The notes under the pieces: model-generated
Databases searched by the model: none
What the model saw: only the letters and a program-made list of their open reading frames with translations
Told to the model about the DNA's origin: nothing
Assembly: GCA_965262605.1 (NCBI GenBank)
Contig: CBDHFN010000003.1
Coordinates: forward strand, 7,222-71,221
DNA: 64,000 nt
Reading direction: 5' to 3'
Origin: Alphaproteobacteria bacterium
GTDB lineage: Bacteria; Pseudomonadota; Alphaproteobacteria; JASGCL01
Translations under genes and position numbers: made by a program
Shown here: positions 7,841-46,688 of the stretch, piece after piece
Numbering within the stretch: position 1 is the first letter of the stretch
How the letters are laid out: each line of letters opens with the position of its first letter

Positions 7841-8005
7841 AATTTTTCCTTTTTGATGATTCGTGCATTCACCATAATAAATAAATTGCAAAAATCTAGA
7901 TAAAAAGTGATTTATTTCAATTTAATTGACAAAAAAAATTTGTTTAAGGCAGAAAAATAACTTTTTTTAAACTAATATAAAATTATTATCAATATAGTTG
8001 ACAAA

Positions 8006-23679: not shown

Positions 23680-23830
23680 TTAGGTAATTACGAAATTAAT
23701 AATACAAATTTTTTTTACTAAGTCAAGTAATATCAAATTTAAGTTTCATGAAAAAAAATCTTTATTTTAAAAAATAAATCTGCTAATATAAATATTAAAG
23801 TTTGTTGCATTAAGAATTTTACAAAGCAAT

Positions 23831-23920
23831 AGAGGGCAAAAACATACGACAAAGCGCAGAATACATGAAGTATTTGAGCATTTTGAGTGTGTTTTTAACC
23901 GACTAGTGCAAAGCAAAAAC
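23831..23920 (+). other. conserved ~90-nt intergenic element, copy 1 (candidate sRNA or cis-regulatory element)
   Basis: About 80% identical to 46598..46688 (AGAGGGCAAnAAnAnACGAnAAAGCGCAG...TGAGCATTTTGAGnGTGTTnTTAACCGA). Lies in the divergent bamA / PotD-like intergenic region. Confidence 0.4.
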
Positions 23921-23954: not shown

Positions 23955-25040
23955 ATGTCGCGCAGAAAATTTTTAAATAACGCCATAACCACTAGCATAG
24001 GATTATCGCTGGGCGGGGGGGCATTGTTTGCGCCCAATATATTAAAAGCGCAAACCCCGATTTTGCATGTTTTAGCCCCAAGCGCGCTATATTCCAATGA
24101 AATTATTGAATATTTGCAAACTTCTATTAACGCGAAAATTCAAATTACGGCTTATAAAAATGAATTTCAAATTATTAATAATCTTAAATCAAGCAATATT
24201 AATTATGATTTAATTATTTGCAGCCATTTTACCGGTATGATTTTGAAAAAACACGAATTAATTCAGCCGATTCAATGGGGAAAAATTAAAAATATATCCG
24301 TATATCGCTATGATTTTGAAATTAATGATTATGATCCATTGCGCGAATTTTCCATTTTATTTGCGTATCAATTTTGGTCATTGGCATTTAACACAAAATT
24401 AACCTATCAAAAACCGATAAGCTGGGGTGCAATTTTTGATTCTATACCCACTGATTCGCAAATAAATTGGTCGCAAGCACCCATGGATTTAATTAAAACT
24501 GCGTGTTTATATTTGGGTTTTGGCATTAATAATACTAATCGGTCAAATTTTAATATTGTTGAAGACATGTTAATTACCTCTTTGCCTATGGTCAAGAAAA
24601 TACCTTTTAGCTTAAATGTATTGGGTTTTGAATTTAATCAAGTTGACATTGCGTTTGCAACCACGAATCAAATTCAAAACGCGATTAATAACTATAAAAA
24701 CATTGGCGCGGCTTTTCCCAAGGAGGGCGTGCCAGTTTATGAAACTATTGCTTTAATTTCTAAGGATAGTTCACAAATTGAATTGGTGCATAGCTTAATT
24801 AATTTATTGCTTAATCCCCTAGTTGGCAAGGCAATTGCCGAAGATTCGTGCTTATTAAACCCGTTTGAACGGGTAATAAGGCTAACTTCCAATAACTATC
24901 AAACCAATAAAATCATTAATCCATCTTTAAATAAACTTATTAAACTTGAACCCATACGCACCTTTGATATACAAACATATAATTATATGCAAGATATGTG
25001 GGCAAGAATAATTAGCAACGCGAAAAGCGAGTCTTCGTAA
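23955..25040 (+). CDS. PotD/PotF-family periplasmic polyamine-binding-like protein, Tat-type signal (paralog 1)
   Basis: RRKFL signal. Alignable to E. coli PotD (YDLIICSHFTGMILKKHELIQPI ~ YDLVVPSTYYVDKMRKEGMIQKI; PKEG...LINLLLNPLVGKAIAE ~ PKEG...LINFLLRPDVAKQVAE). No permease or ATPase genes adjacent. Confidence 0.6.
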   Translation: MSRRKFLNNAITTSIGLSLGGGALFAPNILKAQTPILHVLAPSALYSNEIIEYLQTSINAKIQITAYKNEFQIINNLKSSNINYDLIICSHFTGMILKKHELIQPIQWGKIKNISVYRYDFEINDYDPLREFSILFAYQFWSLAFNTKLTYQKPISWGAIFDSIPTDSQINWSQAPMDLIKTACLYLGFGINNTNRSNFNIVEDMLITSLPMVKKIPFSLNVLGFEFNQVDIAFATTNQIQNAINNYKNIGAAFPKEGVPVYETIALISKDSSQIELVHSLINLLLNPLVGKAIAEDSCLLNPFERVIRLTSNNYQTNKIINPSLNKLIKLEPIRTFDIQTYNYMQDMWARIISNAKSESS

Positions 25041-26113
25041 TGTTAAGAAGAAATTATCTTAGTAAATTCTTAATGGGAGTATGTGGATTTTCTTTATCAA
25101 ATATTTTAAGTGCAGATGAATTAAAACAAGATAGCGGCGTTATTGAAGGGTATGTGCCACAGGCATCTGGAAATTTGGATTTTTTTGGGCATTTCACGCG
25201 CACATATGGTATAAAAGTTAAATTTAATTCATACACAAATTATTTAAAATTTGTCAATGATGTTTTAAGTGATAAAATTCAAGCCGATTTTCTAATTGTT
25301 AGCTCATACACCGCTGATGCTTTAATTAAAGCGGGCAAAGTCCAAAAAGTAGACTGGAGTAGGGTTAAAAATTATGAATTTCCAAAATATGAATCAGTAA
25401 GTAATACTTATGATAAAAACCGCGAATATAGTTTGCCCATTGGCACGGCTTATTTATGTTTGGCATATGATAAAATTCAATTTCCGAATACACCGTTGAC
25501 TTGGGGGGTTTTATTTGATAAAAAATTACCAAAATCCAAAATTGGTTGGTTAAATTATCCGAATGATGTTTTTCAAATTGCTGGGGCTTATATGGGGTAT
25601 GGTTATAATGTTTCGGATAAAAATACATTAATAAAAATTCAAAAATTTTTAATTGATAATGCCAGCAAAGTTAACCGATTAGCCGAAGGCGCGCAACAAG
25701 ACTTAATAGCGTATAAAGAAGTAAGCCATATTGAAACTTATACTTCGGCAATTTTGCAAGTCATGAATGAATTTAATCATATTGACATTCAATTTCCCCA
25801 AGAAGGCATTTTAGCCGATGAATCGGTTGCCGTCATTCCCAATAGCATGAATAATATGAATAATTTATATCAATTTGTTAATTATTTAATGATACCTTTG
25901 GTAGGCAAAACTTTGATTGAAAGCACTAATCTTGATGCTTCATTTGATAGTTTTTTGCGTTTAACTTCCGCAAAATATAAAAATAATAAATTTATTCACC
26001 CTAATTTAAATAAATCGGCGAAAGTTTACCCATTTTTAAATTTAGGCACGCAATATCAAGATACGATTAATAGCCTATGGCTTGATGTTATTAAAAATAT
26101 TCCCAAAGTTTAA
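25040..26113 (+). CDS. PotD/PotF-family periplasmic binding-like protein (paralog 2)
   Basis: Paralogous to the upstream ORF (TWGVLFD, FPQEG, LMIPLVGKTLIE). Start overlaps the previous gene's stop. Confidence 0.6.
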   Translation: MLRRNYLSKFLMGVCGFSLSNILSADELKQDSGVIEGYVPQASGNLDFFGHFTRTYGIKVKFNSYTNYLKFVNDVLSDKIQADFLIVSSYTADALIKAGKVQKVDWSRVKNYEFPKYESVSNTYDKNREYSLPIGTAYLCLAYDKIQFPNTPLTWGVLFDKKLPKSKIGWLNYPNDVFQIAGAYMGYGYNVSDKNTLIKIQKFLIDNASKVNRLAEGAQQDLIAYKEVSHIETYTSAILQVMNEFNHIDIQFPQEGILADESVAVIPNSMNNMNNLYQFVNYLMIPLVGKTLIESTNLDASFDSFLRLTSAKYKNNKFIHPNLNKSAKVYPFLNLGTQYQDTINSLWLDVIKNIPKV

Positions 26114-29946: not shown

Positions 29947-31431
29947 ATGGCTTATAAAGATTTATCGCAATATCTGGACGCTTTGGCAAAGAACAATGAT
30001 TTATGGCGCATTCAAGAACCATTTTGTGTGCGCCACGAAACCACCGAATTACATCGCAGAATTTTAGAATCGGGCGGACCAGCCTTAATTTTTGATAATC
30101 CAACCGCGATTAATGGGCAAAAATACGCCATGCCTTTGGTGCAAAATATTTATGGCTCGGTTGAACGAATCGCGTTTAGCATCGCCAGAAAACCCCAAGA
30201 TATGCGTGATTTGGGGCATTTATTAGCGTCTTTGCAAAAACCCGAACCGCCGAAATCCCTCAAAGATTTGCCAAAAATTTGGGAAATGGTGAAAATTGCC
30301 CGCAATATGCGCCCCAGCAAAACTAAAGACGCCCCATGCCAAGAAATTATTTTAAGGGGCGATGATATTGACTTAAATATTCTACCTATTACCACGAATT
30401 GGCAAGGCGATGTCGCGCCTTTAATAACATGGGGCATCGTCATAAGCCAAGGACCAAACCCTGATACTGATGCCACTGATGATTATAATATGGGTATTTA
30501 CCGCATGCAGGTTTTGAATAAAAATCAATGTATTATGCGCTGGTTAAAGCACCGCGGCGGCGCCCAACATCATCAAAAATGGGGCAAGAATAAAAAAGGC
30601 AACTTGCCGGTAGCCGTGGTAATTGGCGCATCGCCCGCCACGACTTTGGCGGCGGTAATGCCCTTACCCGACAATTTAAGCGAATATAAATTTGCTGGAT
30701 TCTTACAAGAATCGCCCCTGCAATTAGTGCGCGCCATCACCAATAATTTGATGATTCCCGCCCATAGCGAAATTGTGCTTGAAGGCTTCGTTAGCCTTGA
30801 TGATTATCACCTTGAAGGACCATATGGCGACCATACGGGATATTATAATGACACGGAATATTTTCCCATCATGACAATTACCGCCATCACCATGCGCCAA
30901 AAACCTTATTATTTATCAACCTATACGGGCAGACCACCGGACGAGCCCGCCATGCTGGGTATGGCACTCAACGAAGTATTTATCCCGATTTTTCAGCAAC
31001 AATTCCCCGAAGTTATTGATTTTTATCTGCCACCCGAGGGGTGTTCTTACCGAGTCGCCGTGGTGAGTATTAAAAAAACTTACGCTGGACAAGCAAAACG
31101 AATAATGATGGGAGTTTGGTCGTTTTTACGGCAATTTACCTATACTAAAATGGTGATAATTGTTGATGAAGACATAAATTGCCGTTCATGGCAGGATGTT
31201 ATTTGGGCGGTTGCAACCCGCATGGATCCCGCGCGCGATTGCACAATAATTAATAATACCGCGATTGATTATCTTGATTTTGCTTCACCGCAAAGTGGTT
31301 TAGGGTCAAAAATCGGCATTGATGCCACGAATAAAATCGCCCCTGAAACCCATCGCGCTTGGGGGCAAGTAATGGATATGCCCCAAGACACGCAAGCAAA
31401 AATACAAAATTTTTTAGAAAAAAACCGATAA
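29947..31431 (+). CDS. ubiD: UbiD-family (4-hydroxy-3-polyprenylbenzoate) decarboxylase
   Basis: 494 aa. N-terminus alignable to UbiD (DLSQYLDALAKNNDLWRI...ILESGGPALIFDNP). Confidence 0.85.
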   Translation: MAYKDLSQYLDALAKNNDLWRIQEPFCVRHETTELHRRILESGGPALIFDNPTAINGQKYAMPLVQNIYGSVERIAFSIARKPQDMRDLGHLLASLQKPEPPKSLKDLPKIWEMVKIARNMRPSKTKDAPCQEIILRGDDIDLNILPITTNWQGDVAPLITWGIVISQGPNPDTDATDDYNMGIYRMQVLNKNQCIMRWLKHRGGAQHHQKWGKNKKGNLPVAVVIGASPATTLAAVMPLPDNLSEYKFAGFLQESPLQLVRAITNNLMIPAHSEIVLEGFVSLDDYHLEGPYGDHTGYYNDTEYFPIMTITAITMRQKPYYLSTYTGRPPDEPAMLGMALNEVFIPIFQQQFPEVIDFYLPPEGCSYRVAVVSIKKTYAGQAKRIMMGVWSFLRQFTYTKMVIIVDEDINCRSWQDVIWAVATRMDPARDCTIINNTAIDYLDFASPQSGLGSKIGIDATNKIAPETHRAWGQVMDMPQDTQAKIQNFLEKNR

Positions 31432-31487
31432 TTAATCCATCGCTTATTCATCATAACATAATCACCATTAACGAATAAATAGTTAGT

Positions 31488-32672
31488 TTAAGCGTGGACT
31501 TTATCTTGCAGGTGCTTTGTTTTTTGAAAACCATAAATAATTAATATAGAACCAATGATAAATAACGCCCCCAAGCATTTCATGCCATATTCGTGGAATA
31601 AGCCAGCTAAGGAAGCCGTGATAGAGCCAAAGCCATATTGCATAATAGATTGCAACGAAGTTGCCGTGCCAGCGCGGGCGCGAAACGGCGCGGAGGCTCC
31701 GGCAAAACTAATACCCATGACAATGCCCGTGCCAAAGCTGTTGAGCATCATCGGCAATGCCAAAGCCAATAAATTATGCCATTCAAACCAAGCAAAAATA
31801 TTAAGCAAAATTGTGACTAAGCATAATGATAATACGCCAAATCCCAATAATTTTGGCGAATGGAAATATTTTCGGTAAACCATATTGCCGACAATGAAAC
31901 TGCCCGCAGTGAAGGGAAAAATAAAGCCAAATTGCGAAGCATTTAAGCCCATTTCATTAATAAAAATAAAAGATGATATGGATAAATAGGCAAAAAAATT
32001 CATAAATTGCCCAACTAATAATGCGCTATACGCCTGAAAATGCTTATGTTTTAAAATATCGCGAAAGGCTTTAAGATGATTTTTAAAACCTAAATCATGG
32101 GCTTCTAGTTTTGTTGCGGTTTCTTGCAAAAATAAAATAATTATTGTAAAATAAATTGCCGCCGCAACAAACATAATGGCAAAACTGGCACGCCAACCAA
32201 AATATTCTTGCAAAACCCCGCCCAATACCGGCGCGATTAGGGGGGCGATTGCAATGATTGAACCAATAGTGGCAAAGGATTTTGCCATTTCCTTGGGCGG
32301 AATCACATCACGAATTAATGCCCGTGCTGTATTATTTACCGCCGATGCGCCGATGGCTTGCACCACGCGTGTCGCTAATAAAATTTCAAAATTTTGGCTG
32401 AAAACCGCGCAAAAACTGGCAAAAATATAAACACCCAATCCCCCTAATAACAGGGGCTTACGCCCATAAACATCGGACATTGCGCCGACAAAAATAAAAC
32501 TAATGGCAAATGATATTAAATATATTGCGACTAATTGGGCAACTTGGTCGGGGCTTCGGTTTAAATCTTGGGCAATCGCGGGCAAAGATGGCAAAAATGT
32601 ATCAATGCTTATCGGACCCAAAGCAATCAAACCCGCGCTTAAATATATAATTAATTTTGGTTTCATACCCAT
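31488..32672 (-). CDS. MFS transporter, Bcr/CflA drug-resistance subfamily
   Basis: 394 aa, 12 predicted TM segments. Signature N-terminus (ISIDTFLPSLPAIAQDL; GAMSDVYGRKPLLLGG). Confidence 0.7.
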   Translation of the reverse strand: MGMKPKLIIYLSAGLIALGPISIDTFLPSLPAIAQDLNRSPDQVAQLVAIYLISFAISFIFVGAMSDVYGRKPLLLGGLGVYIFASFCAVFSQNFEILLATRVVQAIGASAVNNTARALIRDVIPPKEMAKSFATIGSIIAIAPLIAPVLGGVLQEYFGWRASFAIMFVAAAIYFTIIILFLQETATKLEAHDLGFKNHLKAFRDILKHKHFQAYSALLVGQFMNFFAYLSISSFIFINEMGLNASQFGFIFPFTAGSFIVGNMVYRKYFHSPKLLGFGVLSLCLVTILLNIFAWFEWHNLLALALPMMLNSFGTGIVMGISFAGASAPFRARAGTATSLQSIMQYGFGSITASLAGLFHEYGMKCLGALFIIGSILIIYGFQKTKHLQDKVHA

Positions 32673-33737: not shown

Positions 33738-35276
33738 TCACAAATATTTTGCGTCAAGTTTAATGGGATATTTCGCGCGCAATTGCTTGTCCAATTCATC
33801 GGATATAAAGCTGTGCGGGGGTTTTGCCAGAATTTTTTCTTTAATATCGCGCGCCCGTTCAACTAAATCAGGTTTGCCATTGGCTGCCCATTCTTTGGGG
33901 GAACTGCGGTCAAAAGTTTGCGGATAAAAATAATCCCGTTGCATTAAACGCATGGTTTGGTCAGAACCCAAGAAATGTCCGGGACCATTAAGGCAAGTTT
34001 GGCGAATCACATCAACCGATAATGTATCTTCATTAACTTCAATCCCACGCACAATGCGCATGACGGAACCCAATAAATCATTATCAAGCACCAAAGTTTC
34101 AAGGCAATATCCCAATAATGATGCGTGCATTCCCGCCGATTCATAAATTATATTTGCGCCAGATTGGGCGTCAATACTATGGGTATAGGCTTTTTCTGCG
34201 CCCGCTTGATAATCGGGCAATTTACTATCCGCCATACCAGCGGCAACGCCCGTTGTTAAATTATAATGCCGTCCCATTTGGGCGACGCCCGCCATTAATA
34301 AGGCTTGTTCGGCACTGCCGCCGCTCATTGCGCCCGTTCGTAAATCGGAGACAAAGGGCCAAGTGCCAAAAATACAAGGCGTACCGGGCACAACCGCATT
34401 GGCATAACATAAAGCCCCCAAAACTTCAGACACTGATTGCACTAAGGATCCAGCAATCGCGGCGGGCGAAGTCGCGCCAGCTTGCCCCGCGGATAATAAT
34501 AAAATCGGCATGCCCGCCAAAGCCGCTTCTTCAAGGCAACGACAAGCATCTTGGGCAAATTTTAAAGGGGGGACAACAAAGCAACAAGACATGCTGACAA
34601 AGGGTCTGGCGCGCCAATTAGCTTCACCACCCGCTATATCATGCAACATTTTCATGGATTCGCGAAATTGCTTGGGGTCAACCCAAGATGTGCCAACATG
34701 CTTGCGCGTGCCCCTTACGGACGCATAACAAGTATTAAAATCCATGTCAAATGGGTCGGGTAAATCACGGCATACCATCGTGCGCTGAAACATATGGATA
34801 TTATCTAAATTATCCACTAATTTCGCGGCATGGTAAAGGTCTTTGGTCGTTGATTCATGGTAAATTTTGGTAAAAGGGTCAACTAAATGCACCGCGGCAC
34901 CAGCGGTAGAAAAATAAACCCGCCCATCCGAAGGGTGCAAGTCATGTTCGGGGTCTTGGGCATAAAGCGTAAAACCACGGGTTGCTTTGGCAATAGTATC
35001 TTCAACTAATGCGCGCGGAAAGCATAATCTGCCTTTTTCATTAACAAATGCGCCAGCTTTGGTGCAATATTCAATAGTCGTAGGCAAGGCATCGGCAAAA
35101 CCGATGGTTTCTAATATTTCAAGGGCGGATTGATGCACTTTTTCCACTTCGCTGGGCGTTAATACTTGATATTTATTGCCCGTCATGCCGCCACGAATTG
35201 GCTTTATATTATCCTCTAATGGTGCGGCACGCATGGCGACTCTGGCTTCTCTGCCACCTGATCTTCTTGAACTCAT
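33738..35276 (-). CDS. MttB-superfamily (trimethylamine/glycine-betaine:corrinoid) methyltransferase
   Basis: 512 aa of MttB-family length and composition. Markedly GC-richer (~50%) than surrounding genes. Confidence 0.7.
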   Translation of the reverse strand: MSSRRSGGREARVAMRAAPLEDNIKPIRGGMTGNKYQVLTPSEVEKVHQSALEILETIGFADALPTTIEYCTKAGAFVNEKGRLCFPRALVEDTIAKATRGFTLYAQDPEHDLHPSDGRVYFSTAGAAVHLVDPFTKIYHESTTKDLYHAAKLVDNLDNIHMFQRTMVCRDLPDPFDMDFNTCYASVRGTRKHVGTSWVDPKQFRESMKMLHDIAGGEANWRARPFVSMSCCFVVPPLKFAQDACRCLEEAALAGMPILLLSAGQAGATSPAAIAGSLVQSVSEVLGALCYANAVVPGTPCIFGTWPFVSDLRTGAMSGGSAEQALLMAGVAQMGRHYNLTTGVAAGMADSKLPDYQAGAEKAYTHSIDAQSGANIIYESAGMHASLLGYCLETLVLDNDLLGSVMRIVRGIEVNEDTLSVDVIRQTCLNGPGHFLGSDQTMRLMQRDYFYPQTFDRSSPKEWAANGKPDLVERARDIKEKILAKPPHSFISDELDKQLRAKYPIKLDAKYL

Positions 35277-35518: not shown

Positions 35519-37207
35519 ATGTCTAAAAAAATTGAAACATTAACCGGTAAGCCAGCTCACCCTTGGGTTGGACAATATATTGCAGATTTCAAAAGCGGTT
35601 TATTGGAACGCCGTGAATTTTTATCCGCAATTACCGCGCTTGGTGTAACCGCGGCATCGGCTTTAACTTTGGCTGGTTTGCCCAGCAAAGCCAATGCGCA
35701 AACCCCTAAAAAAGGTGGTGTTGTGCGTTTTTCACAAACAGTGCAAAAAATTGCCGACCCCGCATATGGCGAATGGTCACAACATGGTAATGCGTTTCGC
35801 CCCATGCTTGATGGTTTGATTTTATGGAATGATGACGGCACGTTTCAACCTTGGTTGGCTGAAAAATGGGAATATTCCACTGATTTGAAAACTTTCACCC
35901 TGCATTTACGCAAAGGCGTAAAATGGACAAATGGTGATGAATTCAACGCATCAGATATTACCGCAATTTTTGATCGTTGGTTGAATAAATTGCCAAAAAC
36001 TTCCATGCAATCAAAATTTGATGGTATGTTAGAAGAATATGACACGGGTAAAAAAGACGACAAAGGCAATGCAATTAAAGCCAAAAAAGCACTTCCAAAT
36101 TGCGTTAAAGTCGTAGATAGCCATACTGTGCAATTAATTTTCACAAAACCCGATATTTCAATCCCCGGCGGTTTATCTGATTATCCTTCGTTAATTACGC
36201 ATCGCGATTTTGAAAAAAATGGCGGTAATTTTTGGGATAAGCCAATTGGCACTGGTGCTTTTGAAGTGGCAGAATATAAAGTTGGCGAACGGGCTGTTTA
36301 TAATGCGCGTAAATCTGGTTATTGGGGCAAAGGTCCATATATTGATCAATTAGTATATGTTGATTTAGGCGAAGATGCTGGCAAAGAATTAGCTGCTTTT
36401 TCGGCGGGTCAAATTGACATTAACTATAAAACTGCACCCGACCAAGTTTCTAAATTGGAAGCGATTAAAACCATTCAAAAGAATGAAAAAGCAACCGCTG
36501 GAACTTTGGTTATGCGTTTTAACCAAAAAACCAAACCCGGTGATAATAAAAAATTGCGTCAAGCTTTAAATTTATCGGTTGATAATCAAAAAGTGTTGGA
36601 AATTGCATATGCTGGTAAGGCGGCTGCGGCAGAAAACCATCATGTAGCACCAATTCACCCTGAATATGCTAAATTACCTGCGATTAAACGCGATGTAGCG
36701 GCGGCAAAAAAATTATTAGCCGAAGCCGGTTATCCCAATGGTGTTGAATTAGAAATGATTTGTATTGACGCGCCCAAGTTTGAAAGCGATATGGGTTTAT
36801 CCATCGCAGACCAAGCCAAAGACGCAGGCATTAAAATCAATGTTAAAGTTCTTCCCGGTGGTGCATATTGGGATAAATGGGATACATGGCCTCTTTCCAT
36901 CACCGCATGGAATGGTCGCCCATTTGGCACGCAAATTTACAATTTAGCATACCGCTCGGGCGCAGTTTGGAACGAAGCTGGCTATTCAAATCCTGAATTA
37001 GACAAATTATTGGACGAAGCCGACAAAACTCCAGATGCGAAAAAACGCTCGGTGATTATGGAAAAATTGGAAAAAATCATGCAAGAAGATGCAGTAATTT
37101 TACAACCATTCTGGCAAAAAAATTACAATTTTCAAAACACGAAATTGAAAAATTTCAAATATCACTTCGCCAACGAATTCCGTTTTCACGAAGTTTGGAT
37201 TGACTAA
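35519..37207 (+). CDS. ABC transporter substrate-binding protein, family 5 (DppA/OppA-like), Tat signal
   Basis: Start taken at MSKKIETL (GGAGG Shine-Dalgarno upstream). RREFLS twin-arginine motif. Size and composition match a family-5 SBP. Confidence 0.75.
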   Translation: MSKKIETLTGKPAHPWVGQYIADFKSGLLERREFLSAITALGVTAASALTLAGLPSKANAQTPKKGGVVRFSQTVQKIADPAYGEWSQHGNAFRPMLDGLILWNDDGTFQPWLAEKWEYSTDLKTFTLHLRKGVKWTNGDEFNASDITAIFDRWLNKLPKTSMQSKFDGMLEEYDTGKKDDKGNAIKAKKALPNCVKVVDSHTVQLIFTKPDISIPGGLSDYPSLITHRDFEKNGGNFWDKPIGTGAFEVAEYKVGERAVYNARKSGYWGKGPYIDQLVYVDLGEDAGKELAAFSAGQIDINYKTAPDQVSKLEAIKTIQKNEKATAGTLVMRFNQKTKPGDNKKLRQALNLSVDNQKVLEIAYAGKAAAAENHHVAPIHPEYAKLPAIKRDVAAAKKLLAEAGYPNGVELEMICIDAPKFESDMGLSIADQAKDAGIKINVKVLPGGAYWDKWDTWPLSITAWNGRPFGTQIYNLAYRSGAVWNEAGYSNPELDKLLDEADKTPDAKKRSVIMEKLEKIMQEDAVILQPFWQKNYNFQNTKLKNFKYHFANEFRFHEVWID

Positions 37208-37230
37208 TTTTAGTTGATATTAAAATGGCA

Positions 37231-37259
37231 AAGCCCCCAATTTTGGGGGCTTTGTTTTA
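37231..37259 (+). terminator. rho-independent terminator of the SBP gene
   Basis: AGCCCCCAA-TT-TTGGGGGCT hairpin followed by TTTGTTTT. Confidence 0.65.
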
Positions 37260-37289
37260 TATATTTTAATTGCTTGATATATTAAATAT

Positions 37290-38340
37290 ATGCCTGCATC
37301 ATAACAAAGAAAAAATCCTTAAAATCCTTGGTAAAGGGGGTTTGGGGGAATCCCCCAAAATATAGCGAATAAAACAGCAAGAATTTTTATTTACGCACCT
37401 TATTTTGCGCTTACGCTTTACTAGGATTTTAAGGATTGAAAAGGATTTAAGGATTATTAAAATATCACCATTTAAAACAGCAAGAATTTTTATTTTCGCA
37501 CCTTATTTTGCGCTTACGCTTTACTAGAATTAAAAGAATTTTAAGAATTAAAAGAATTTAATGATTATTAAAATATTTAATTATCAAATTTGTTTAAAAA
37601 TATATGGTTGCATGATGAAAAAGAAAAAAATTCTTAAAATTCTTAAAATTCTTAAAATTCTTGGTAAAGGGGGTTTGGGGGAATCCCCCAAAATATAACG
37701 AATAAAACAGCATGAATTTTTATTTTCGCACCCGTTTTGACGCTTACGCTTTAATAGGATTATGGGATTATAGGATTAAATGATTATTAAAATAGTAATT
37801 AATCAAATTCGGTTAAAAATATATGCATGTATGATGAAAAAGAAAAAATTCCTTCAATCTTTTTAATCCTTAAATCCCATTTTAAGGGGGATTGGGGGAA
37901 TCCCCCAAAATATAACGAATAAAACAGCAAGAATTTTTATTTTCGCACCTTATTTTGCGCTTACGCTTGAATAGAATTAAAAGAATTAAAAGAATTTAAT
38001 GATTATTATAATATTTAATTATCAAATTTGGTAAAAAATATATGATTGAATGATGAAAGAGAAAAAAAATTCTTAAAATTCTTAAAATTCTTGTAAAAGG
38101 GGGTTTGGGGGAATCCCCCAAAATATAACGAAAAAACAGCATGAAATTTTATTTTCGCACCCGTTTTAACGCTTACGCTTGAATAGAATTAAAAGAATTA
38201 AAAGAATTTAATGATTATTATAATATTTAATTATCAAATTTGGTAAAAAATATATGGTTGAATGATGAAAGAGAAAAAAATTCTTAAAATTCTTAAAATT
38301 CTCGCGCGAAGCGCAAAGCGTAAGCGTTAATTTAAATCCA
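37290..38340 (+). repeat. tandem array (~4.5 units of ~220 bp) of a structured AT-rich repeat family containing a GGGGG-A-CCCCC palindrome
   Basis: Repeated units: ...TATATGnTTGnATGATGAAAnAGAAAAAAA(TTCTTAAAAT)n TCTTGGTAAAGGGGGTTTGGGGGAATCCCCCAAAATATAACGAATAAAACAGCAAGAATTTTTATTTTCGCACC.TTATTTTGCGCTTACGCTTT... Unit starts near 37604, 37822, 38040 and 38263. Confidence 0.85.
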
Positions 38341-38526
38341 TTCTAAATTTGCACATAAGCAAGAAAATTATCGTCATTAATATACTATGCCATGGGTAAT
38401 TATATTTGAACCCTGCTATTACGGGGCTGGTAATAATTAATCCATAAATCGCTAATGCTAATTAATCTTTTCTGCTCCTTGCATGCACCGCAAGTATTGC
38501 ATCAGGGCTTGAAATAGTCTGTTGAC

Positions 38527-39108
38527 TTATACCTTAATGATATTCGCGATTGCTGTGCTGACTTTATCAATCGCTAATGTGCCGTCTAAAACCGATAATT
38601 TACCGCTTGATTGATAATAAGGCAGGACAGGGGCGGTTGATTCATGGTAAGTTTTTAATCGTTTCTTTAAGGTTTCTTCGTTATCATCGGCGCGAACTGG
38701 AATATTCTTGGCGATATTTTCAGCAGCGCGCGATTGAATTCGTTGCAATAAAATCTCGTCTGGGACGCGTAATTCAATAACATGGTTAATGGTTTTTTTC
38801 GCGCTTGCCAACATTTTATCTAAACCTTCGGCTTGGGGGATAGTGCGCGGAAACCCATCTAAAATAAAGCCATTTTGGCAATCTGATTCGGTAATGCGGT
38901 TTGCAATAATGCCAATAATGGTTGCATCATCAACTAATTGCCCTGCTTCCATAATGGATTTTGCTTTTAAGCCAAGATCCGTGCCATCTTTAACGGCTTG
39001 GCGAAGCATATCGCCCGTGGCAAGTTGCACTATATTATGTTTTTTGGTAAGAATCTCCGCTTGCGTGCCTTTTCCTGCGCCCGGTGGTCCAAACATAATT
39101 ATAATCAT
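38527..39108 (-). CDS. adk: adenylate kinase
   Basis: P-loop GPPGAGKGTQ. LID and NMP-binding regions. Follows secY. Confidence 0.9.
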   Translation of the reverse strand: MIIIMFGPPGAGKGTQAEILTKKHNIVQLATGDMLRQAVKDGTDLGLKAKSIMEAGQLVDDATIIGIIANRITESDCQNGFILDGFPRTIPQAEGLDKMLASAKKTINHVIELRVPDEILLQRIQSRAAENIAKNIPVRADDNEETLKKRLKTYHESTAPVLPYYQSSGKLSVLDGTLAIDKVSTAIANIIKV

Positions 39109-39112
39109 AGCA

Positions 39113-40453
39113 TTACCTTTTTTGAGTTAATTTTGATTTTTTGATTAATTTTTCATATTGATGGGCGAATAAATGCCCTTGAATTTGGGTAACCGTGTCC
39201 ATGGTAACTGATACCACGATAAGCAAGCTTGTGCCACCAAAATAAAATGGCACGGAATATTGCGAAATTAAAATTTCAGGCAAAACGCAAACCACCGCCA
39301 AATAAGCCGCACCAATACAGGTTAAACGGGTAAGAATATAATCAAAATAATCGGCTGTATTTTTGCCGGGGCGAATGCCCGTAATAAATCCACCTTGCTT
39401 GCGTAAATTTTCTGCCGTTTCTTCGGGGTTAAAAACAACCGCCGTATAAAAAAATGCGAAAAACACAATAAGCGTTACATAGGTAATAATATAGGCAATA
39501 TGACCGCGCCCTAAGGAAGTTGCGATAGTTTGCAACCAATCGGGGCCGGTATTTTGCAAGAATCCTAAAATTGTTAAAGGCAATAATAAAATTGAACTGG
39601 CAAAAATTGGCGGAATCACCCCTGCCGTGTTTAATTTTAACGGCATATGCGAAGTATCACCGCCAAATTGCTTATTGCCAACCATTCGTTTGGGGTAAGT
39701 AACTAAAATCTTGCGTTGCGCCCGTTCAATGAAAACTATAAAAGCCACAACTGCAATCGCTAATGCTAAAAAAATGATAATGAAAAAAGTGCTTAAAGCA
39801 CCATTTCTGCCCAATTCCAATAAGCGCACCAAAGCAACCGGTAAATTTGCAACAATCCCCGAAAATATAATCAAGCTTACGCCATTACCAATGCCGCGAT
39901 TTGTGATTTGCTCGCCCAACCACATTAAAAATAATGTGCCCGCCGTTAAAGTTGACACCGTGGTAATGATGAAAAAACTTTTGCTTAACACGACAACGGG
40001 ACCTACGGGGCTTGTCGCGCCAATAAGGCTTACCGCGATGCCGTAAGATTGCACAATGGCTAATAATAAAGTTAAATATCTTGTATATTGGCTTATTTTT
40101 TTGCGTCCCGCTTCACCATCTTTTTTTAATGCTTCAATCGCAGGCACAATGGAAGTTAATAATTGCATAATAATTGATGCCGAAATATAAGGCGCGATAT
40201 TTAACGCAAATATCGTCATGCGCCCCAAAGCACCGCCCGAAAACATATCAAACATGCCCAATATCCCTTGGGATTGGGTTTTAAAAATAGCCGCAAGCGC
40301 AACAGGATTAACACCGGGCAAAGGAATATATGTGCCAATTCGGTAAACAACCAAAGCCGCCAAGGCAAAAAATATCCGTGATTTTAACTCACTTGATTTG
40401 CCCATGGCAGACATGGAAAAGTTTTTTGCAAATTGATCAGTAACCGAAGCCAT
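39113..40453 (-). CDS. secY: preprotein translocase subunit SecY
   Basis: 446 aa with 10 TM helices, in the conserved rplO-secY-adk order. Confidence 0.95.
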   Translation of the reverse strand: MASVTDQFAKNFSMSAMGKSSELKSRIFFALAALVVYRIGTYIPLPGVNPVALAAIFKTQSQGILGMFDMFSGGALGRMTIFALNIAPYISASIIMQLLTSIVPAIEALKKDGEAGRKKISQYTRYLTLLLAIVQSYGIAVSLIGATSPVGPVVVLSKSFFIITTVSTLTAGTLFLMWLGEQITNRGIGNGVSLIIFSGIVANLPVALVRLLELGRNGALSTFFIIIFLALAIAVVAFIVFIERAQRKILVTYPKRMVGNKQFGGDTSHMPLKLNTAGVIPPIFASSILLLPLTILGFLQNTGPDWLQTIATSLGRGHIAYIITYVTLIVFFAFFYTAVVFNPEETAENLRKQGGFITGIRPGKNTADYFDYILTRLTCIGAAYLAVVCVLPEILISQYSVPFYFGGTSLLIVVSVTMDTVTQIQGHLFAHQYEKLIKKSKLTQKR

Positions 40454-40461
40454 TTGATTTA

Positions 40462-41007
40462 TTAAGCTGCTAAACGACTAGCGCGTTTTTTTTCTGAATC
40501 AACACGGCGTTGTTGGCGTTTGCCCCATTTCGCTGGCGTTGCTTTTTCAACAACTTTGACCGAACCACCCAATGATTCAATTAAGGCAACCACCGAAGCC
40601 GATGCACCCGCAACATCAAAATTGCAATTTTTAGCATCAAATGCAACATCAGAACCAACAAGGCGAATACCATCGCGTTTATTGCTTATCACACCCGCGG
40701 CAACAATCGCATCGCAAGTTATCGGTGATTTAATGTCAATTTTTTTCGCTTCAATGAATGGCAATAAGCGACCCAAAGAAATTGTGACAAAGCGTTTCGC
40801 ATTTGGATTTTTAAATCCGCGTTTCGGTAAACGGCGATATAAAGGCATTTGACCACCTTCAAACCCATTAATTGCCACGCCTGAACGGGCTGTTTGCCCT
40901 TTGCCACCGCGTCCGCAAGTTTTACCTTTGCCAGAGCCAATACCGCGTCCGACACGCATTCTTGATTTTCTTGCGCCTTCGTTATCAAATAATTCATTTA
41001 ATTGCAT
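40462..41007 (-). CDS. rplO: 50S ribosomal protein L15
   Basis: Gly/Arg-rich N-terminus ([21 protein letters not shown]). Confidence 0.9.
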
Positions 41008-41011
41008 GATG

Positions 41012-41221
41012 TTAACTTTCTAATTTAATTAAATGCTGAACTTTGCGAATCATGCCTTGCACCGAAGGTGTATCAATTAATTCGCTGGTTTTGTGCATTT
41101 TGTTTAAGCCCAAACCAATTAAGGTTGCCCGTTGATCCTTTTTGCGCCGAATCGGCGAACCAATTTGCGTAATTTTCACTGTTGCTGGTGCAACGGCTTG
41201 TTTTTCTGCTTTTTTTGCCAT
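41012..41221 (-). CDS. rpmD: 50S ribosomal protein L30
   Basis: 69 aa ([26 protein letters not shown]). Confidence 0.85.
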
Positions 41222-41394
41222 AATAATTTCCTAAAATTCGTTTAATATCTCTATTTAACTATGCCTTTTAATAAGTTATTCATTAAGAGTCAATAGATAT
41301 TTTAAGGAATAAGAATTTTTTTATGATATACCCTGATTACTGCCATGATATTGAGTGGCATTGGTATTTGTGCGAATCGCTTTATTATAACCAG

Positions 41395-41510
41395 AAAATA
41401 TAAATTCTTGCTGTTTTATTCGTTATATTTTGGGGGATTCCCCCAAACCCCCTTTACCAAGAATTTTAAGAATTTCTTTTAATTCCATTCAAGCGCAAAA
41501 TATATAAACT
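41395..41510 (-). repeat. solo copy of the G5-A-C5 repeat family (reverse orientation)
   Basis: AAATTCTTGCTGTTTTATTCGTTATATTTTGGGGGATTCCCCCAAACCCCCTTTACCAAGAATTTTAAGAATTT... matches array units at 37290..38340 and 44560..45660. Flanked by imperfect inverted motifs TTGAGTGGcATTG / CAATACCACTCAA. Confidence 0.7.
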
Positions 41511-41593
41511 CAATACCACTCAAACGAATCGCGACAATTATTCTTAGCCATTTTGTGCAAAAAAGCTGTTATTTTATAGAAAATTGCATGGTT

Positions 41594-43429
41594 TTATAAT
41601 TGAAATAATTCTTCTAATTGCGTCATCATGGTGCTTGCCAATTGTTCAACATCATTGATGGTTACGGCTTTTTTATAATAACGGGTAACATCGTGCCCAA
41701 TACCAATGGCGCATAATTCAACCGCGCGATATTTTTCAACATAATCAATGGCATCACGCAAATGGCGTTCCAAATAATTTGATTCATTCACCGATAAAGT
41801 AGAATCATCAACGGGGGCACCGTCCGAAATAACCATAAGGATTCTTCGTTCTTCGGAGCGTTTAAGCAATCGCCGATGCGCCCAAAGCAAGGCTTCGCCA
41901 TCAATATTTTCTTTCAAAAGCCCATCGCGCAACATTAAAGAAATATTGCGCCGTGCCTTGCGGTAAGGGGTTTGCGCCGATTTATAAATAATATGCCGCA
42001 AGTCATTTAATCGTCCGGGGTTATTTGGCTTGCCGTGTGCAAGCCATTTTTCGCGTGATAAGCCCCCCTTCCAGCGGCTGGTGGTGAAGCCTAAAATTTC
42101 AACTTTTAAGCCGCATCGCTCCAAAGTGCGCGTTAATATATCCGTAGAAATGGCGGCAATAGAGATTGGGCGACCGCGCATTGACCCAGAATTATCAATT
42201 AATAATGTCACCACCGTGTCTTTAAATTTCATTTCGCGTTCAATTTTATATACTAAATTTTGCGTGGGATCAATAATGATGCGGCTTAATCGGGCGTTAT
42301 CAATCATGCCATCTTCGGCATCAAAATCCCAAGACCGCAATTGTTCCGCCATTAATTTTCGTTGCAATCGGTTGGCTAATTTCGCAATGATTGAAGATAA
42401 ATCGCCCATTTGCTCGTCAAGAATTTTGCGGTATTTGTCAAATTCTTCATCGCGTTCAATTAATTCCTCGGCGGGAATTTCTTGGTCAAATTCTTTGGTA
42501 TAAACATTGTAAAAAGGTTCTTTGGGAATGTGCGATAAATCATGTTCGGGGCGCGGGCGTTTGTCCATTTCGCGCGTTTCATCGCCCGGTTCTGATGGTA
42601 ATGATTCTAAATTTTGATTTTCGTCAATTTCATCTTCACCATTTTCATCTTCTTTATCTAATTTTTCTTGTTCTTGTTCGGATAATTTTTGGCTATTATC
42701 CTCACTTCCATCGGATAAGGTTTGCTCATCTTGAGTTTCTTGAGGTTCTTGTTGTTCGGCGTCATCATCATTATCATTATTATCAAATTCGTCCTGCATA
42801 TCGGTTGGATTAAATAATAATTCTTGCAATAATTTTTGGGATTTTTCGGCAAATAATTTTTGATTATTCATATATGGGCTTAATTCTTCAATTAAGACTT
42901 GAAATTTTGACGCAATTTGCGGTTGCTTGATGGCGTAAAGACTTTGGGCGGTGGGGGGCACGGGTAATTTGCCAAATTGTTCGCGCGCGTATAATTTTAC
43001 TGATTCAATTTGCAATTCTTCGCTATTTTCATCTAATCTATCAAAACCCATACGCCGATAAGTTTTTTCCAAATCTGCCGTTAAATTTTGCTTGACACCA
43101 ATTAAATATTGCGAACCCACGGCTTCAACCCTTGCTTCTTCAAGCGCATCAAATAATGCCCCAGCTTGCTCGCTTTGGGGGCGGGATTTATGGTGAATAT
43201 TGGCGTTATGATAGCGATATTCAATAGCAATCTTATCGGTTGTGCCACGAAATTCCGCTAATTTTTCTTCGTCTGGATTAAAAGAAGGCGGCGGTAATTT
43301 GGCTTCTTTGTCCATGACGCCAGTTTCACCATTTTGGAAAACGACATTTAATATCGGCGCATCAGCAAGCGCCTTAAATCCAGCACCTATTTTGCGTTTC
43401 AAGCGTTCTTGCGGTTTTTCATTGCTCAT
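41594..43429 (-). CDS. cobT: CobT-like protein (aerobic cobaltochelatase subunit family) with acidic linker and C-terminal vWA domain
   Basis: 611 aa. N-terminus resembles alphaproteobacterial CobT. Asp/Glu-rich central stretch. vWA MIDAS motif ([11 protein letters not shown]). Confidence 0.65.
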
Positions 43430-43438
43430 TTAAGTGCA

Positions 43439-44494
43439 TTAACCATAAATTTCTTGCCAAGCATTCGCAATTTCAATAGCGGTTGATTCAGAAAAATTCT
43501 TGGCTTGAATAATTTTAATTTTCTTTGGGTAAATATCCGCATTATTCAAATGAGCATTATCTAAAATAAAGCTTGCTTCGCGATTATATGTGCCTAAATT
43601 TAGTGTTTCTGAGGTATTTTTCGCAATCGCAGGCGAAAGCATTAAATCAATAAATGCGTGCGCGGCACTTAAATTATCGCTTGTTTTGGGGATAAGCACC
43701 GCATAATCATCGCGAATAATACCCTCTTCGGGCAGGGAAATCCCTAAATAATTAAACGATTTTTTAGCACTAATTATATCATGGGCAAAAGATACGGTTA
43801 TATCAGCATTATTATCAATAATTTGCTGAAAGCTGTTAAAATTAACGATGTTGCTGATATTTTTCTTGCAATTAGCAAGAAATTTTTGGGCATTTAAAAT
43901 TTCATCGCTGGTCGGATCGTTAAAATTAGCATTCATGTAATTTAATGCTAAGCGAAACATAATATTACCATCATTTAGCCATGCAATGCGCGCCGTGGTG
44001 CCATCACTTTTTGTCGTGGGCTTTGTAAAAATTGTGCCCCATGAAGTTTGTTTGGATAATTTTTTTTCGTTATACCCCAAAATAATATTGTAATAAAATA
44101 ATGGCAAAGAAAATTTTAAGGCTGTGTCGTAATTATTTTTGTAATTTTTTTCAATATTATCAAAATTTTTCAAATATTTAGGGTTAATCGGGTTTATATA
44201 ATTACGCTTAATATAAGGCGCAAGTTCTGAACCAGATGCAATTATGCAATCATATTTAACATTTTTCTGAATAATTTCTTTAGCTAATTCATCGTTATTA
44301 TAATAATTTTTTATATCTAAGACTACCCCATAAACCGAACGGAAATAATCGGTTAAATAGCGCGAATCATAAAATCCGGGGCATAAAATCTGCAATTGCC
44401 CCGCCGCGCGTAATTTATCCACTACGCCCCCGCTAAGTCCTGCAATAGCAATATATTGAACGAGTGATTTGAAAAAATTTCTTCTATCTAACAT
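43439..44494 (-). CDS. PotD/PotF-family periplasmic binding-like protein, Tat-type signal (paralog 3)
   Basis: RRNFF motif. Paralogous to 23955..26113 (SWGTIFT, LPEEG, LMLSPAIAK). No transporter genes adjacent. Confidence 0.55.
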   Translation of the reverse strand: MLDRRNFFKSLVQYIAIAGLSGGVVDKLRAAGQLQILCPGFYDSRYLTDYFRSVYGVVLDIKNYYNNDELAKEIIQKNVKYDCIIASGSELAPYIKRNYINPINPKYLKNFDNIEKNYKNNYDTALKFSLPLFYYNIILGYNEKKLSKQTSWGTIFTKPTTKSDGTTARIAWLNDGNIMFRLALNYMNANFNDPTSDEILNAQKFLANCKKNISNIVNFNSFQQIIDNNADITVSFAHDIISAKKSFNYLGISLPEEGIIRDDYAVLIPKTSDNLSAAHAFIDLMLSPAIAKNTSETLNLGTYNREASFILDNAHLNNADIYPKKIKIIQAKNFSESTAIEIANAWQEIYG

Positions 44495-44559
44495 GTTTGC
44501 AATTTTAGCTTGATTATTTTAAGAGTCAAGTAAAAAATAACATGACTTTCCTTATTTTT

Positions 44560-45660
44560 TATTTGATAAGATTATATTTATTATTTTGTATGGCAATAGT
44601 TTGGGGGATTCCCAAATCACGAAAACATTATAATTCGTGGCTGTTTGAACGCTTGCGCTTTAATGGGATTAAAGGATTGAACGATTGATTTTATAATTTC
44701 TGTTTCGCACCTTTTTAATATAATTCACGATAAACCACCCCGCTTGTTTATTGCCAAGGCAATTACGCAAGTATTGCAAAGCAAGCGTGGTGGTTTAAAA
44801 TCTTTTAATCATTAAAATTCTTAGAAAAATATATAAAATTCTTTTAATTCTTTTAATTTTATTTAAGCGTAAGCGTCAAAACGGGTGCGAACCGAAAAAA
44901 TTCATGCTGTTTTATTCGTTATATTTTGGGGGATTCCCCCAATCCCCCTTAAAATAGGATTTAAGGATTAAAAAGATTGAAGGATTTTTTTCTTTTTCAT
45001 CATGCAGGCATATATTTTTAAACGAATTTGATTAATTACTATTTTAATAATCCTATAATCCCATAATCCTATTAAAGCATAAGCGCAAAATAGAGTACGA
45101 AAATAAAAATTCTTGCTGTTTTATTCGCTATATTTTTGGGGGATTCCCCCAAACCCCCTTTACCAAGAATTTTAAGAATTGAAAAGAATTTTAAGAATTT
45201 TTTTCTTTGTCATCATGCAACCTTATATTTTTAACCGAATTTGATTAATTACTATTTTAATAATCCTATAATCCCATAATCCTATTAAAGCGTAAGCGCA
45301 AAATAGAGTACGAAAATAAAAATTCTTGCTGTTTTATTCGCTATATTTTTGGGGGATTCCCCCAAACCCCCTTTTGCAAAAATTTTAAGAATTGAAAAGA
45401 ATTTTAAGAATTTTTTTCTTTGTCATCATGCAACCATATATTTTTAACCGAATTTGATTAATTACTATTTTAATAATCCTATAATCCCATAATCCTATAA
45501 TCCCATAATCCCATAATCCTATTAAAGCGCAAGCGCAAAATATGGTGCGAAAATAGAAATTCTTGCTGTTTTAGATGGTGATATTTTAATAATCTTTTAA
45601 TCCTATTAAAGCGTAAGCGCAAAATAAGGTGCGACAATAAAAAATCATGCTAATATAAAA
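44560..45660 (-). repeat. tandem array of the same repeat family in inverted orientation (~4 units, first unit degenerate/interrupted)
   Basis: Reverse complement of the units of 37290..38340 (...TTTTGGGGGATTCCCCCAAACCCCCTTTACCAAGAATTTTAAGAATT...). Includes the ATAATCC(C/T)ATAATCC short tandem tracts. Confidence 0.85.
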
Positions 45661-45810
45661 GCTTTCATCACCGATGGCAATACCACTCAATCATATGGCG
45701 ATATTCATGCACAGCATCGTTGATGCTAAATTCTGAGGAATGTCCTGAAAAATAACAAGAGATTCCCCATTTTTATTGGATAAAAATTTATGCTGTTTTA
45801 AATTGTGGAT

Positions 45811-46515: not shown

Positions 46516-46597
46516 ATCCTTAATTTATCTTGATTCCGAAGAATCTGTTAAAAATTATACTAAGAGCGAATTTCAAAATTAATTTTTTAGAAGGATT

Positions 46598-46688
46598 AGA
46601 GGGCAAGAATACACGAAAAAGCGCAGTTTACATCTAGGTAATGAGCATTTTGAGGGTGTTCTTAACCGATTAAGGCAAATAAAAAATA
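46598..46688 (+). other. conserved ~90-nt intergenic element, copy 2
   Basis: About 80% identical to 23831..23920. Lies between two minus-strand genes. Confidence 0.4.

Follow-up and report, generated by a model that had tools for sequence, protein, structure and literature searches.

Mirror-image arrays of a lineage-specific hairpin-bearing repeat at junctions of reshuffled gene modules around a fragment of a ribosomal-protein cluster in an alphaproteobacterium

We identified a family of intergenic repeats in a 64-kb stretch of an alphaproteobacterial genome (contig CBDHFN010000003.1, positions 7,222 to 71,221; hereafter the window). The family comprises two tandem arrays, A and B, in opposite orientations and a solo copy between them. 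Together these loci bracket two small gene modules: rpmD-rplO-secY-adk, which is a piece of the S10-spc-alpha ribosomal-protein cluster, and a CobT-family gene paired with a gene for a solute-binding protein. Our best explanation, which we hold at a probability of roughly 0.6, is that these are lineage-specific intergenic hairpin repeats resembling both tandem repeats of variable number (VNTRs) and miniature inverted-repeat transposable elements (MITEs), and that they lie at the junctions of reshuffled modules in a lineage whose ribosomal-protein operon was already broken.

The repeat is a lineage-specific, non-coding, modular element of ~212 bp. Tandem Repeats Finder detected a period of 212 nt at 37473-38302 (3.8 copies, 83% matches) and a period of 213 nt at 44896-45498 (2.8 copies, 93% matches). 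Both arrays thus consist of constant-period head-to-tail copies, as in tandem repeats of the VNTR or minisatellite type. A profile built from the seven full units and scanned against the window matched contiguously at 37284-38341 (plus strand) and 44813-45654 (minus strand), matched a partial solo unit at 41394-41483 (minus strand), and had no other match in the 64 kb. The 17-nt core palindrome of the unit, TTGGGGGATTCCCCCAA, occurs at exactly eight sites in the window, all in repeat loci (0.01 expected). The parts of the three loci are as follows.

37227-37256, no strand: bidirectional terminator-like hairpin (13-pair stem and T run) after an OppA-like gene; outer (left) limit of the array A region
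37284-38341, plus strand: array A, starting with a partial unit (37284-37372) and a short deletion-variant unit (37373-37475)
37476-38345 (anchor split), plus strand: the four full units of array A, 211-230 nt each
38255-38341, plus strand: conserved family terminus at the inner end of array A
41394-41510, minus strand: solo copy, one unit without the ~70-nt central spacer, oriented as array B and inverted relative to array A
44614-44723, minus strand: inner terminus of array B in degenerate form, partly in the opposite orientation, with homology to its counterpart in array A and to positions 411-517 of a sister-species locus (L027)
44813-45654, minus strand: array B proper, with a truncated unit (44813-44911) and three full units (44912-45570)
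45571-45654, minus strand: outermost unit of array B, a short deletion variant
45780-45803, minus strand: isolated repeat fragment AAAAATTTATGCTGTTTTAAATTG, beyond flank module F (described below) and directly before the stop codon of a nucleotidyl-transferase gene

The repeats lie outside genes, at 37208-38526 and 44495-45810 between annotated open reading frames (ORFs), and the arrays have 29-31% GC compared with about 34-43% for the enclosed genes. A reading of the unit alignment revealed no conserved unit-wide ORF, and a 52-aa ORF within array B has no Pfam match. Rfam returned nothing in the arrays at either gathering or permissive thresholds, and only sub-threshold terminator look-alikes at 37114-37326. 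Coding potential of the stretch beginning ATGATGAAAAAG was ruled out, its frame being broken in other units. We also ruled out, on anatomy, a CRISPR (no unique spacers) and a composite transposon (no insertion sequence at the ends). A replication origin was rejected as well, the cumulative skew having no switch.

Each unit has four parts: a G5/C5 palindrome, a GCGCTTACGCTT module, two inverted micro-repeat blocks, and an AT-rich spacer between these blocks. In the orientation of array A, the unit starts with AAGGGGG-TTT-GGGGGAATCCCCC, followed by a stretch ending in TTTTGCGCTTACGCTT. The first block consists of 8-9-nt micro-repeats, (AGAATTAAA)n or GGATT variants. The spacer of ~70 nt comes next and then the second block, (AAAATTCTT)n or AATCC variants, which is the inverted complement of the first. 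Having two inverted micro-repeat blocks, a unit can fold into a long imperfect hairpin (DNA fold z = -3.0 for a single internal unit). The fold is stronger for the last, terminal unit of array A (z = -3.6), because AAGCGTAAGCG, which is complementary to the GCGCTTACGCTT module, comes after its second block. The G5/C5 palindromes are single-oriented in each array, reading GGGGGAATCCCCC in 4 of 4 cases in array A and GGGGGATTCCCCC in 3 of 3 in array B, and each contains one GANTC site.

An initial annotation of this region described the two arrays as reverse complements of one another. They are indeed mutually reverse-complementary, with a top arm pair of 177 nt at 94% identity (37762-37938 versus 44896-45072) and other arm pairs at 73-90%, but 44560-44830, counted there as array B, is a degenerate terminus plus a 65-nt insert rather than plain array. 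The homology of the degenerate terminus scores 66 (shuffle mean 26.9, standard deviation (sd) 4.3), and with it included array B extends over about 44614-45654. The solo copy is 98% identical, in inverted orientation, to 82 nt of array A (37646-37727).

Unit-by-unit comparison places the best matches between the arrays in collinear order from the outside inward: A1 with B0 and B1, A2 with B1 and B2, A3 with B3, and A5 with B4. The short deletion-variant units A1 and B0 have the ATATCACCAT junction in common, and A1 scores 56 against B0 and 60 against B1. Both arrays have a short unit at the outer end and the same terminus at the inner end; both termini match the sister-species sequence at L027 411-517 with scores of 66-67 (shuffle means 27, sd 4.4; z about 9). 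Within arrays, B1 and B2 are 93% alike and A4 and A5 84%. The unique flanks of the two arrays have no homology beyond the array limits. A short outer unit and a conserved inner terminus in both arrays point to whole-array duplication. The collinear mirror structure fits inverted duplication of a complete array followed by local changes and does not fit a single array split by inversion. Such a history would start with head-to-tail multiplication of units through replication slippage or unequal exchange, with modules shuffled among units. The finished array, with its short unit at one end and its terminus at the other, would then have been copied whole in inverted orientation to give arrays A and B, with a single-unit copy located between them. 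Slippage and duplication are the mechanisms that we infer.

The gene content between the repeats was correctly given by the initial annotation, as NCBIfam and Pfam assignments confirm.

38527-39108, minus strand: adk
39113-40453, minus strand: secY
40462-41007, minus strand: rplO
41012-41221, minus strand: rpmD
41222-41341, minus strand: conserved leader and putative promoter of rpmD-rplO-secY-adk (TTGACT at 41293-41288, 17 nt, TAAAAG at 41270-41265)
41594-43429, minus strand: CobT-family gene
43439-44494, minus strand: PotD/PotF-like solute-binding protein gene (weak match), upstream of the CobT-family gene

The four-gene module is probably a transcription unit with its own putative promoter. 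In an alignment of three genomes, ATTGAC is invariant at the -35 position upstream of rpmD. A consensus promoter scan omits the site at 41293-41265, whose second hexamer lacks the final T.

These four genes are the only members of the 20-gene S10-spc-alpha cluster in the window. The other 16 are found neither within the 64 kb nor in the corresponding loci of a sister species (L007, 88% nucleotide identity) or of a more distant relative (L001/L002). The canonical order, with rpsE upstream of rpmD and rpsM-rpsK-rpoA downstream of adk, is therefore absent here, as the initial annotation had noted. It had also taken the operon to be broken exactly at the repeats. The break on the rpmD side lies at the solo copy and not at array B. 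Array B is no breakpoint of the operon: it is situated upstream of another conserved module, which consists of the binding-protein gene and cobT.

Matches to the SecY protein of the window comprise one identical entry, one relative at 81%, and then thousands at 70% or less. The closest matches outside the clade, at 70% (L023, L024), have an intact order, ...rplR-rpsE-rpmD-rplO-secY-adk-rpsM-rpsK-rpoA-rplQ. In the 81% relative (L001/L002, two independent assemblies), rpmD-rplO-secY-adk stands alone between a methyltransferase gene upstream and rnc-era-rho downstream. Its junctions are free of repeats: in L001 there is a 94-nt gap upstream, and rnc overlaps adk downstream. In the sister species, the same four genes lie between a flagellar hook-like gene and the remnant of an IS110-family transposase (L007 7519-7683). 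The remnant is directly downstream of adk, at the junction held by array A in the window; no relation between it and the repeat is apparent. None of the neighbours of the module in L007 or L001/L002 is present in the window.

Gene order thus indicates that the operon break is ancestral to the clade, older than the arrays and not made by them, because the isolated module is found in L007 and L001/L002 with other neighbours and the L001 junctions carry no repeats. The initial annotation had considered that relatives might all show an intact spc-alpha operon, exposing a misassembly; the comparison with L007 and L001/L002 shows otherwise. Inverted repeats of ~1 kb can mislead short-read assemblies, so that a misjoin at the repeats might produce an isolated operon fragment or a false orientation. 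We consider this extremely unlikely, since independent assemblies of relatives show the same isolated module (NCBI and Logan assemblies for one relative, an ENA assembly for the sister species) and the arrays are distinguishable by reads, being 73-94% alike with no exact run longer than 51 nt.

The second module behaves in a similar way. The binding-protein gene and cobT are adjacent in another relative (L025/L026; 43% and 64-81% identity), where the genes to either side of the pair are not those of the window. Both this pair and rpmD-rplO-secY-adk have been repeatedly reshuffled in a clade of small alphaproteobacterial genomes. Upstream of the pair, a 69%-identity relative has a long repeat-laden intergenic region (L025 8465-8833) with hairpin-bearing direct repeats spaced at 170 nt, unrelated in sequence to the arrays of the window. 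The window also contains two tandem ORFs without Pfam matches (23955-25040 and 25040-26113) that are distant paralogues of the binding protein preceding cobT, with 21-24% identity to its L025 homologue.

All three repeat loci are located at junctions of small conserved gene modules. Window and L007 are homologous at 88% from 38533, at the adk stop, to 41341. This homology visibly ends at array A on one side and, on the other, ~10 nt short of the TTGAGTGG motif and the solo copy. The solo-copy region aligns with the corresponding region upstream of the module in L007 no better than shuffled controls do. The repeats coincide with REARRANGEMENT relative to L007 at array A and at the solo copy and do not at array B. 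Elsewhere, ~8.7 kb of a flagellar region is collinear between the window and the sister species. The proposal that the repeats mark rearrangement breakpoints therefore stands for array A and the solo copy, but the events that broke the operon were not theirs: the repeats mark junctions later than the original break. They probably took part in forming these later junctions by homologous or illegitimate recombination, a causal role that we infer.

The family is also seen at a different site. In the sister species, its terminus (L027 411-517) lies within 577 bp inserted between purF and ubiD, two genes that 6 bp separate in the window. From this filled site opposite an empty one we conclude that there has been at least one entry of the family into new sites. 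Other small G5/C5 elements occur at sister-species sites that are empty in the window or at breakpoints there. Examples are the elements at the breakpoint after ubiD (L027 2412-2681, opposite 31431-31488 of the window) and short tandem G5/C5 hairpin elements (L028 5394-5592; for example CCCCCTTGGAAGCGGTGGTATTGAGT) at a site that is empty in the window, about 55060.

Large inverted arrays were proposed by the initial annotation as substrates for recombination, and on length they qualify. The longest exact matches are 51 nt between arrays A and B, 67 nt in inverted orientation between array A and the solo copy, and 47 nt in direct orientation between the solo copy and array B. RecA-dependent recombination can act on such lengths in rare events. 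Recombination could invert the segment between A and B, flip only the four-gene module, or remove the cobT pair. The arrays, or array A with the solo copy, might work in this way in the present, so that the segment flips and both orientations coexist in the population; the clade is visibly rearrangement-prone. We regard a working switch of this kind as rather unlikely. With frequent exchange or conversion, the arrays would not be expected to have diverged to 73-94% identity or to contain different sets of units. After an inversion, secY and the ribosomal-protein genes would run opposite to 38 of the 47 genes tabulated for the window, and third-position GC skew has no strand signal in the window, giving no sign of a past flip either way. 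A site-specific invertible segment is marked by a recombinase gene, and the window has neither a recombinase nor an invertase gene.

The initial annotation further suggested a MITE-like origin, on the grounds of inverted motifs on either side of the solo copy and a recurrence of the right-hand motif at the outer edge of array B. The motifs are as described. Allowing one mismatch, CAATACCACTCAA has three sites in the 64 kb (41351-41363, minus strand; 41511-41523, plus strand; 45678-45690, plus strand) where 0.07 are expected. Each belongs to a longer sequence that we term flank module F.

41335-41393, minus strand: left-hand copy of F (core TTGAGTGGCATTG at 41351-41363), sharing ~70% identity with the F copy that borders array B on its outer side
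41511-41548, plus strand: F, short right copy, with core CAATACCACTCAA at 41511-41523
45648-45706, plus strand: copy of F bordering array B on its outer side (core CAATACCACTCAA at 45678-45690)
44732-44796, no strand: unrelated 65-nt palindromic element inserted in array B, AAACCACCCCGCTTG ... CAAGCGTGGTGGTTT

Two ~60-nt copies of F, one left of the solo copy and one on the outer side of array B, match each other in inverted orientation (score 47; shuffle mean 25.5, sd 4.4). Direct-orientation copies of the compound [repeat then F] lie on either side of the cobT pair. The 65-nt insert belongs to a separate palindromic family: its inverted ends AAACCACCCCG / CGGGGTGGTTT are shared with a longer copy in the sister species (L007 7293-7446), and similar CCACCCCG/CGGGGTGG ends, judged by eye, occur at another sister-species site (L027 about 690-885). 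A dispersed intergenic element of ~100 nt is also present at 23792-23913 and 46571-46672 in the window and at L027 11337-11458, with copies 75-81% identical; the copy at 46571-46672 lies between the nucleotidyl-transferase and DUF2155 genes, just to the right of array B.

These observations raise the possibility that the repeat is a non-autonomous miniature transposable element with inverted F modules (TTGAGTGGYATTG) as its ends, a tandemly amplified core, and a transposase encoded elsewhere. The inverted 13-nt motif on both sides of the solo copy, the inverted recurrence of F at array B, the hairpin potential of the units, and the family terminus at a sister-species site that is empty in the window are all consistent with this idea. 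We treat it as a tentative alternative, because several expected features are missing. No target-site duplication is visible outside the motifs at 41351 and 41523, around the arrays, or at the filled L027 site, which is composite. Array A has no F module; the 13-nt motif occurs neither in array A nor at the inner end of array B, and the search for the terminal motif at other copies, which the initial annotation had proposed as a check, was negative at array A and at all 28 retrieved loci. Nor does the F module itself occur in about 29 kb of sister-species DNA or in the other retrieved loci. In the window, the three loci are clustered within 8.4 kb rather than dispersed. We detected no transposase, recombinase, integrase or invertase domain in the major ORFs of the window, and no copy of the repeat among the genomes of 185,579 species (one genome each), JGI metagenome contigs or viral contigs. 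MITEs are defined by terminal inverted repeats at every copy and by target-site duplication; the family has neither and does not pass as a MITE. A mobile origin nevertheless has some support from the terminus in the 577-bp insert of the sister species, and from the other small elements that are present in one of the two species and not in the other.

Searches with the G5/C5 core pattern alone gave 4 genome and 15 metagenome matches, in unrelated contexts and with only the 21-31-nt palindrome in common. The GGGGG-N-TT-GGGGGAATCCCCC pattern recurs in unrelated organisms (L003-L006, L008-L022), including Nitrosopumilus, Chloroflexi, and gut and freshwater metagenomes. One of these matches, the 1.7-kb contig L014, has the same sequence at both ends, suggestive of a small circular replicon.

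The repeat might instead belong to an undescribed non-autonomous family, with a defined terminus and the ~60-nt inverted F, that builds arrays by internal amplification and serves as a portable recombination site, through which gene modules are excised and inserted again as cassettes. This would explain why modules stay intact while their neighbours change in every genome of the clade, and why the cobT pair is flanked by [repeat-F] in direct orientation. Speculatively, such flanking is the trace expected if a circular intermediate integrated by recombination within the repeat. We judge this proposal distinctly unlikely.

Another proposal is that the arrays are functional cis-elements, either clustered protein-binding sites (iteron-like, centromere-like or nucleoid-organising) or regulatory DNA for the flanking operons. 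The micro-repeats are regular (8-9 nt, two inverted blocks per unit), every G5/C5 palindrome has its GANTC site, array B and the solo copy both precede transcription units, and L025 has its unrelated hairpin repeats upstream of the same gene pair. A function of this kind is nonetheless very unlikely. The sequence and number of the micro-repeats vary freely among units. Promoter-like and terminator sites in the arrays are not commoner than in shuffled sequence, and the putative rpmD promoter lies outside the solo copy. Array A is located between two convergent gene ends and has no partner gene nearby.

Several observations weigh against the explanation that we prefer, a lineage-specific hairpin repeat at the junctions of reshuffled modules. 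First, coincidence of a repeat with a breakpoint relative to one relative is an association and not a cause, and one of the three breakpoints between window and sister species (just after ubiD, about 31431) is repeat-free in the window. Second, the copy count comes from 64 kb of this genome only. Third, arm complementarity within units is matched by 11.6% of permuted pairings and is thus not significant, and two units of array B have mismatched arm types. With arm pairing no better than permuted, the hairpin is not demonstrably maintained, and the units look like shuffled modules rather than conserved structures. Finally, slippage alone does not explain the inverted ~60-nt F modules that flank the solo copy and border array B on its outer side.

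The closest known analogues are the VNTR-141 and VNTR-105 repeats of wMel-like Wolbachia, which are intergenic, have periods of 141 and 105 nt, and contain 23-nt hairpins, internal short repeats and deletion-variant periods (PMC3287509). Slippage promoted by the hairpins, together with concerted evolution, has been proposed as the way in which they evolve (PMC3287509). Like them, the repeats described here are intergenic, non-coding and head-to-tail, carry a GC-rich hairpin, internal short repeats and deletion variants, and occur in small alphaproteobacterial genomes; slippage is among the mechanisms proposed for both. Unlike them, they have a period of 212 nt and units that are each a long imperfect palindrome, share no sequence similarity with the Wolbachia repeats, and form two mirror-image arrays with a solo copy bracketing essential genes.

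Bacterial MITEs and hairpin elements include the Correia elements of Neisseria and the Rickettsia palindromic elements. Our repeats resemble these in being small, non-coding and hairpin-forming, in the short inverted motifs that flank one copy, and in the filled and empty site between sister species. They differ in their tandem amplification and in lacking target-site duplication, a parent insertion sequence, and evidence of many dispersed copies. The repetitive extragenic palindromes and bacterial interspersed mosaic elements (REP/BIME) of enterobacteria are imperfect palindromes in alternating orientation with an associated REP-associated tyrosine transposase (RAYT). They too are extragenic mosaics of a GC-rich palindrome and short modules, often tandem and often at operon ends. 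The palindromes here have the same orientation within an array, there is no RAYT-type (Y1-transposase) domain in the window, and no sequence relation was seen, so the family is not of the REP/BIME type. Chromosomal inversions are known between inverted repeats such as rRNA operons or insertion-sequence copies. The window likewise has inverted homologous DNA flanking a segment of a few kilobases, but this homology is short and diverged, and no inversion was observed. We found no paper on these assemblies or their sample accessions. The repeat is thus a lineage-specific member of the known intergenic hairpin-bearing tandem repeats, unusual only in its mirror arrays and solo copy around essential genes.

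The window contains three further loci of note. On the plus strand, a SIR2-like gene (9339-10484) and, after it, a HerA-like helicase gene (10474-12174) lie in a 28-30% GC island among minus-strand housekeeping genes; they look like a horizontally acquired SIR2-HerA type anti-phage defence pair. The genes for the large and small subunits of glutamate synthase, which are normally adjacent, are separated here (368-4903 and 6410-7891) by a 499-aa ORF with an Eco57I-type methylase domain (4905-6404). An Rfam match to the pyrrolysine insertion element PYLIS_3 above the gathering threshold (47 bits; 34136-34235, minus strand) lies inside an MttB-family methyltransferase ORF (33738-35276). This ORF has no in-frame stop and probably encodes a non-pyrrolysine MttB homologue that retains the PYLIS sequence.

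These findings reveal no new mechanism. For practical purposes, the arrays would serve well as strain-typing markers and are also spots where assembly and synteny-based annotation can fail. For the biology of the lineage, the window offers a clean example of how a small genome rich in repeats dismantles a gene cluster that is among the most conserved in bacteria. Four of its genes, with what is probably their own promoter, stay together although the genes next to them differ between species, and lineage-specific hairpin repeats accumulate at the junctions.

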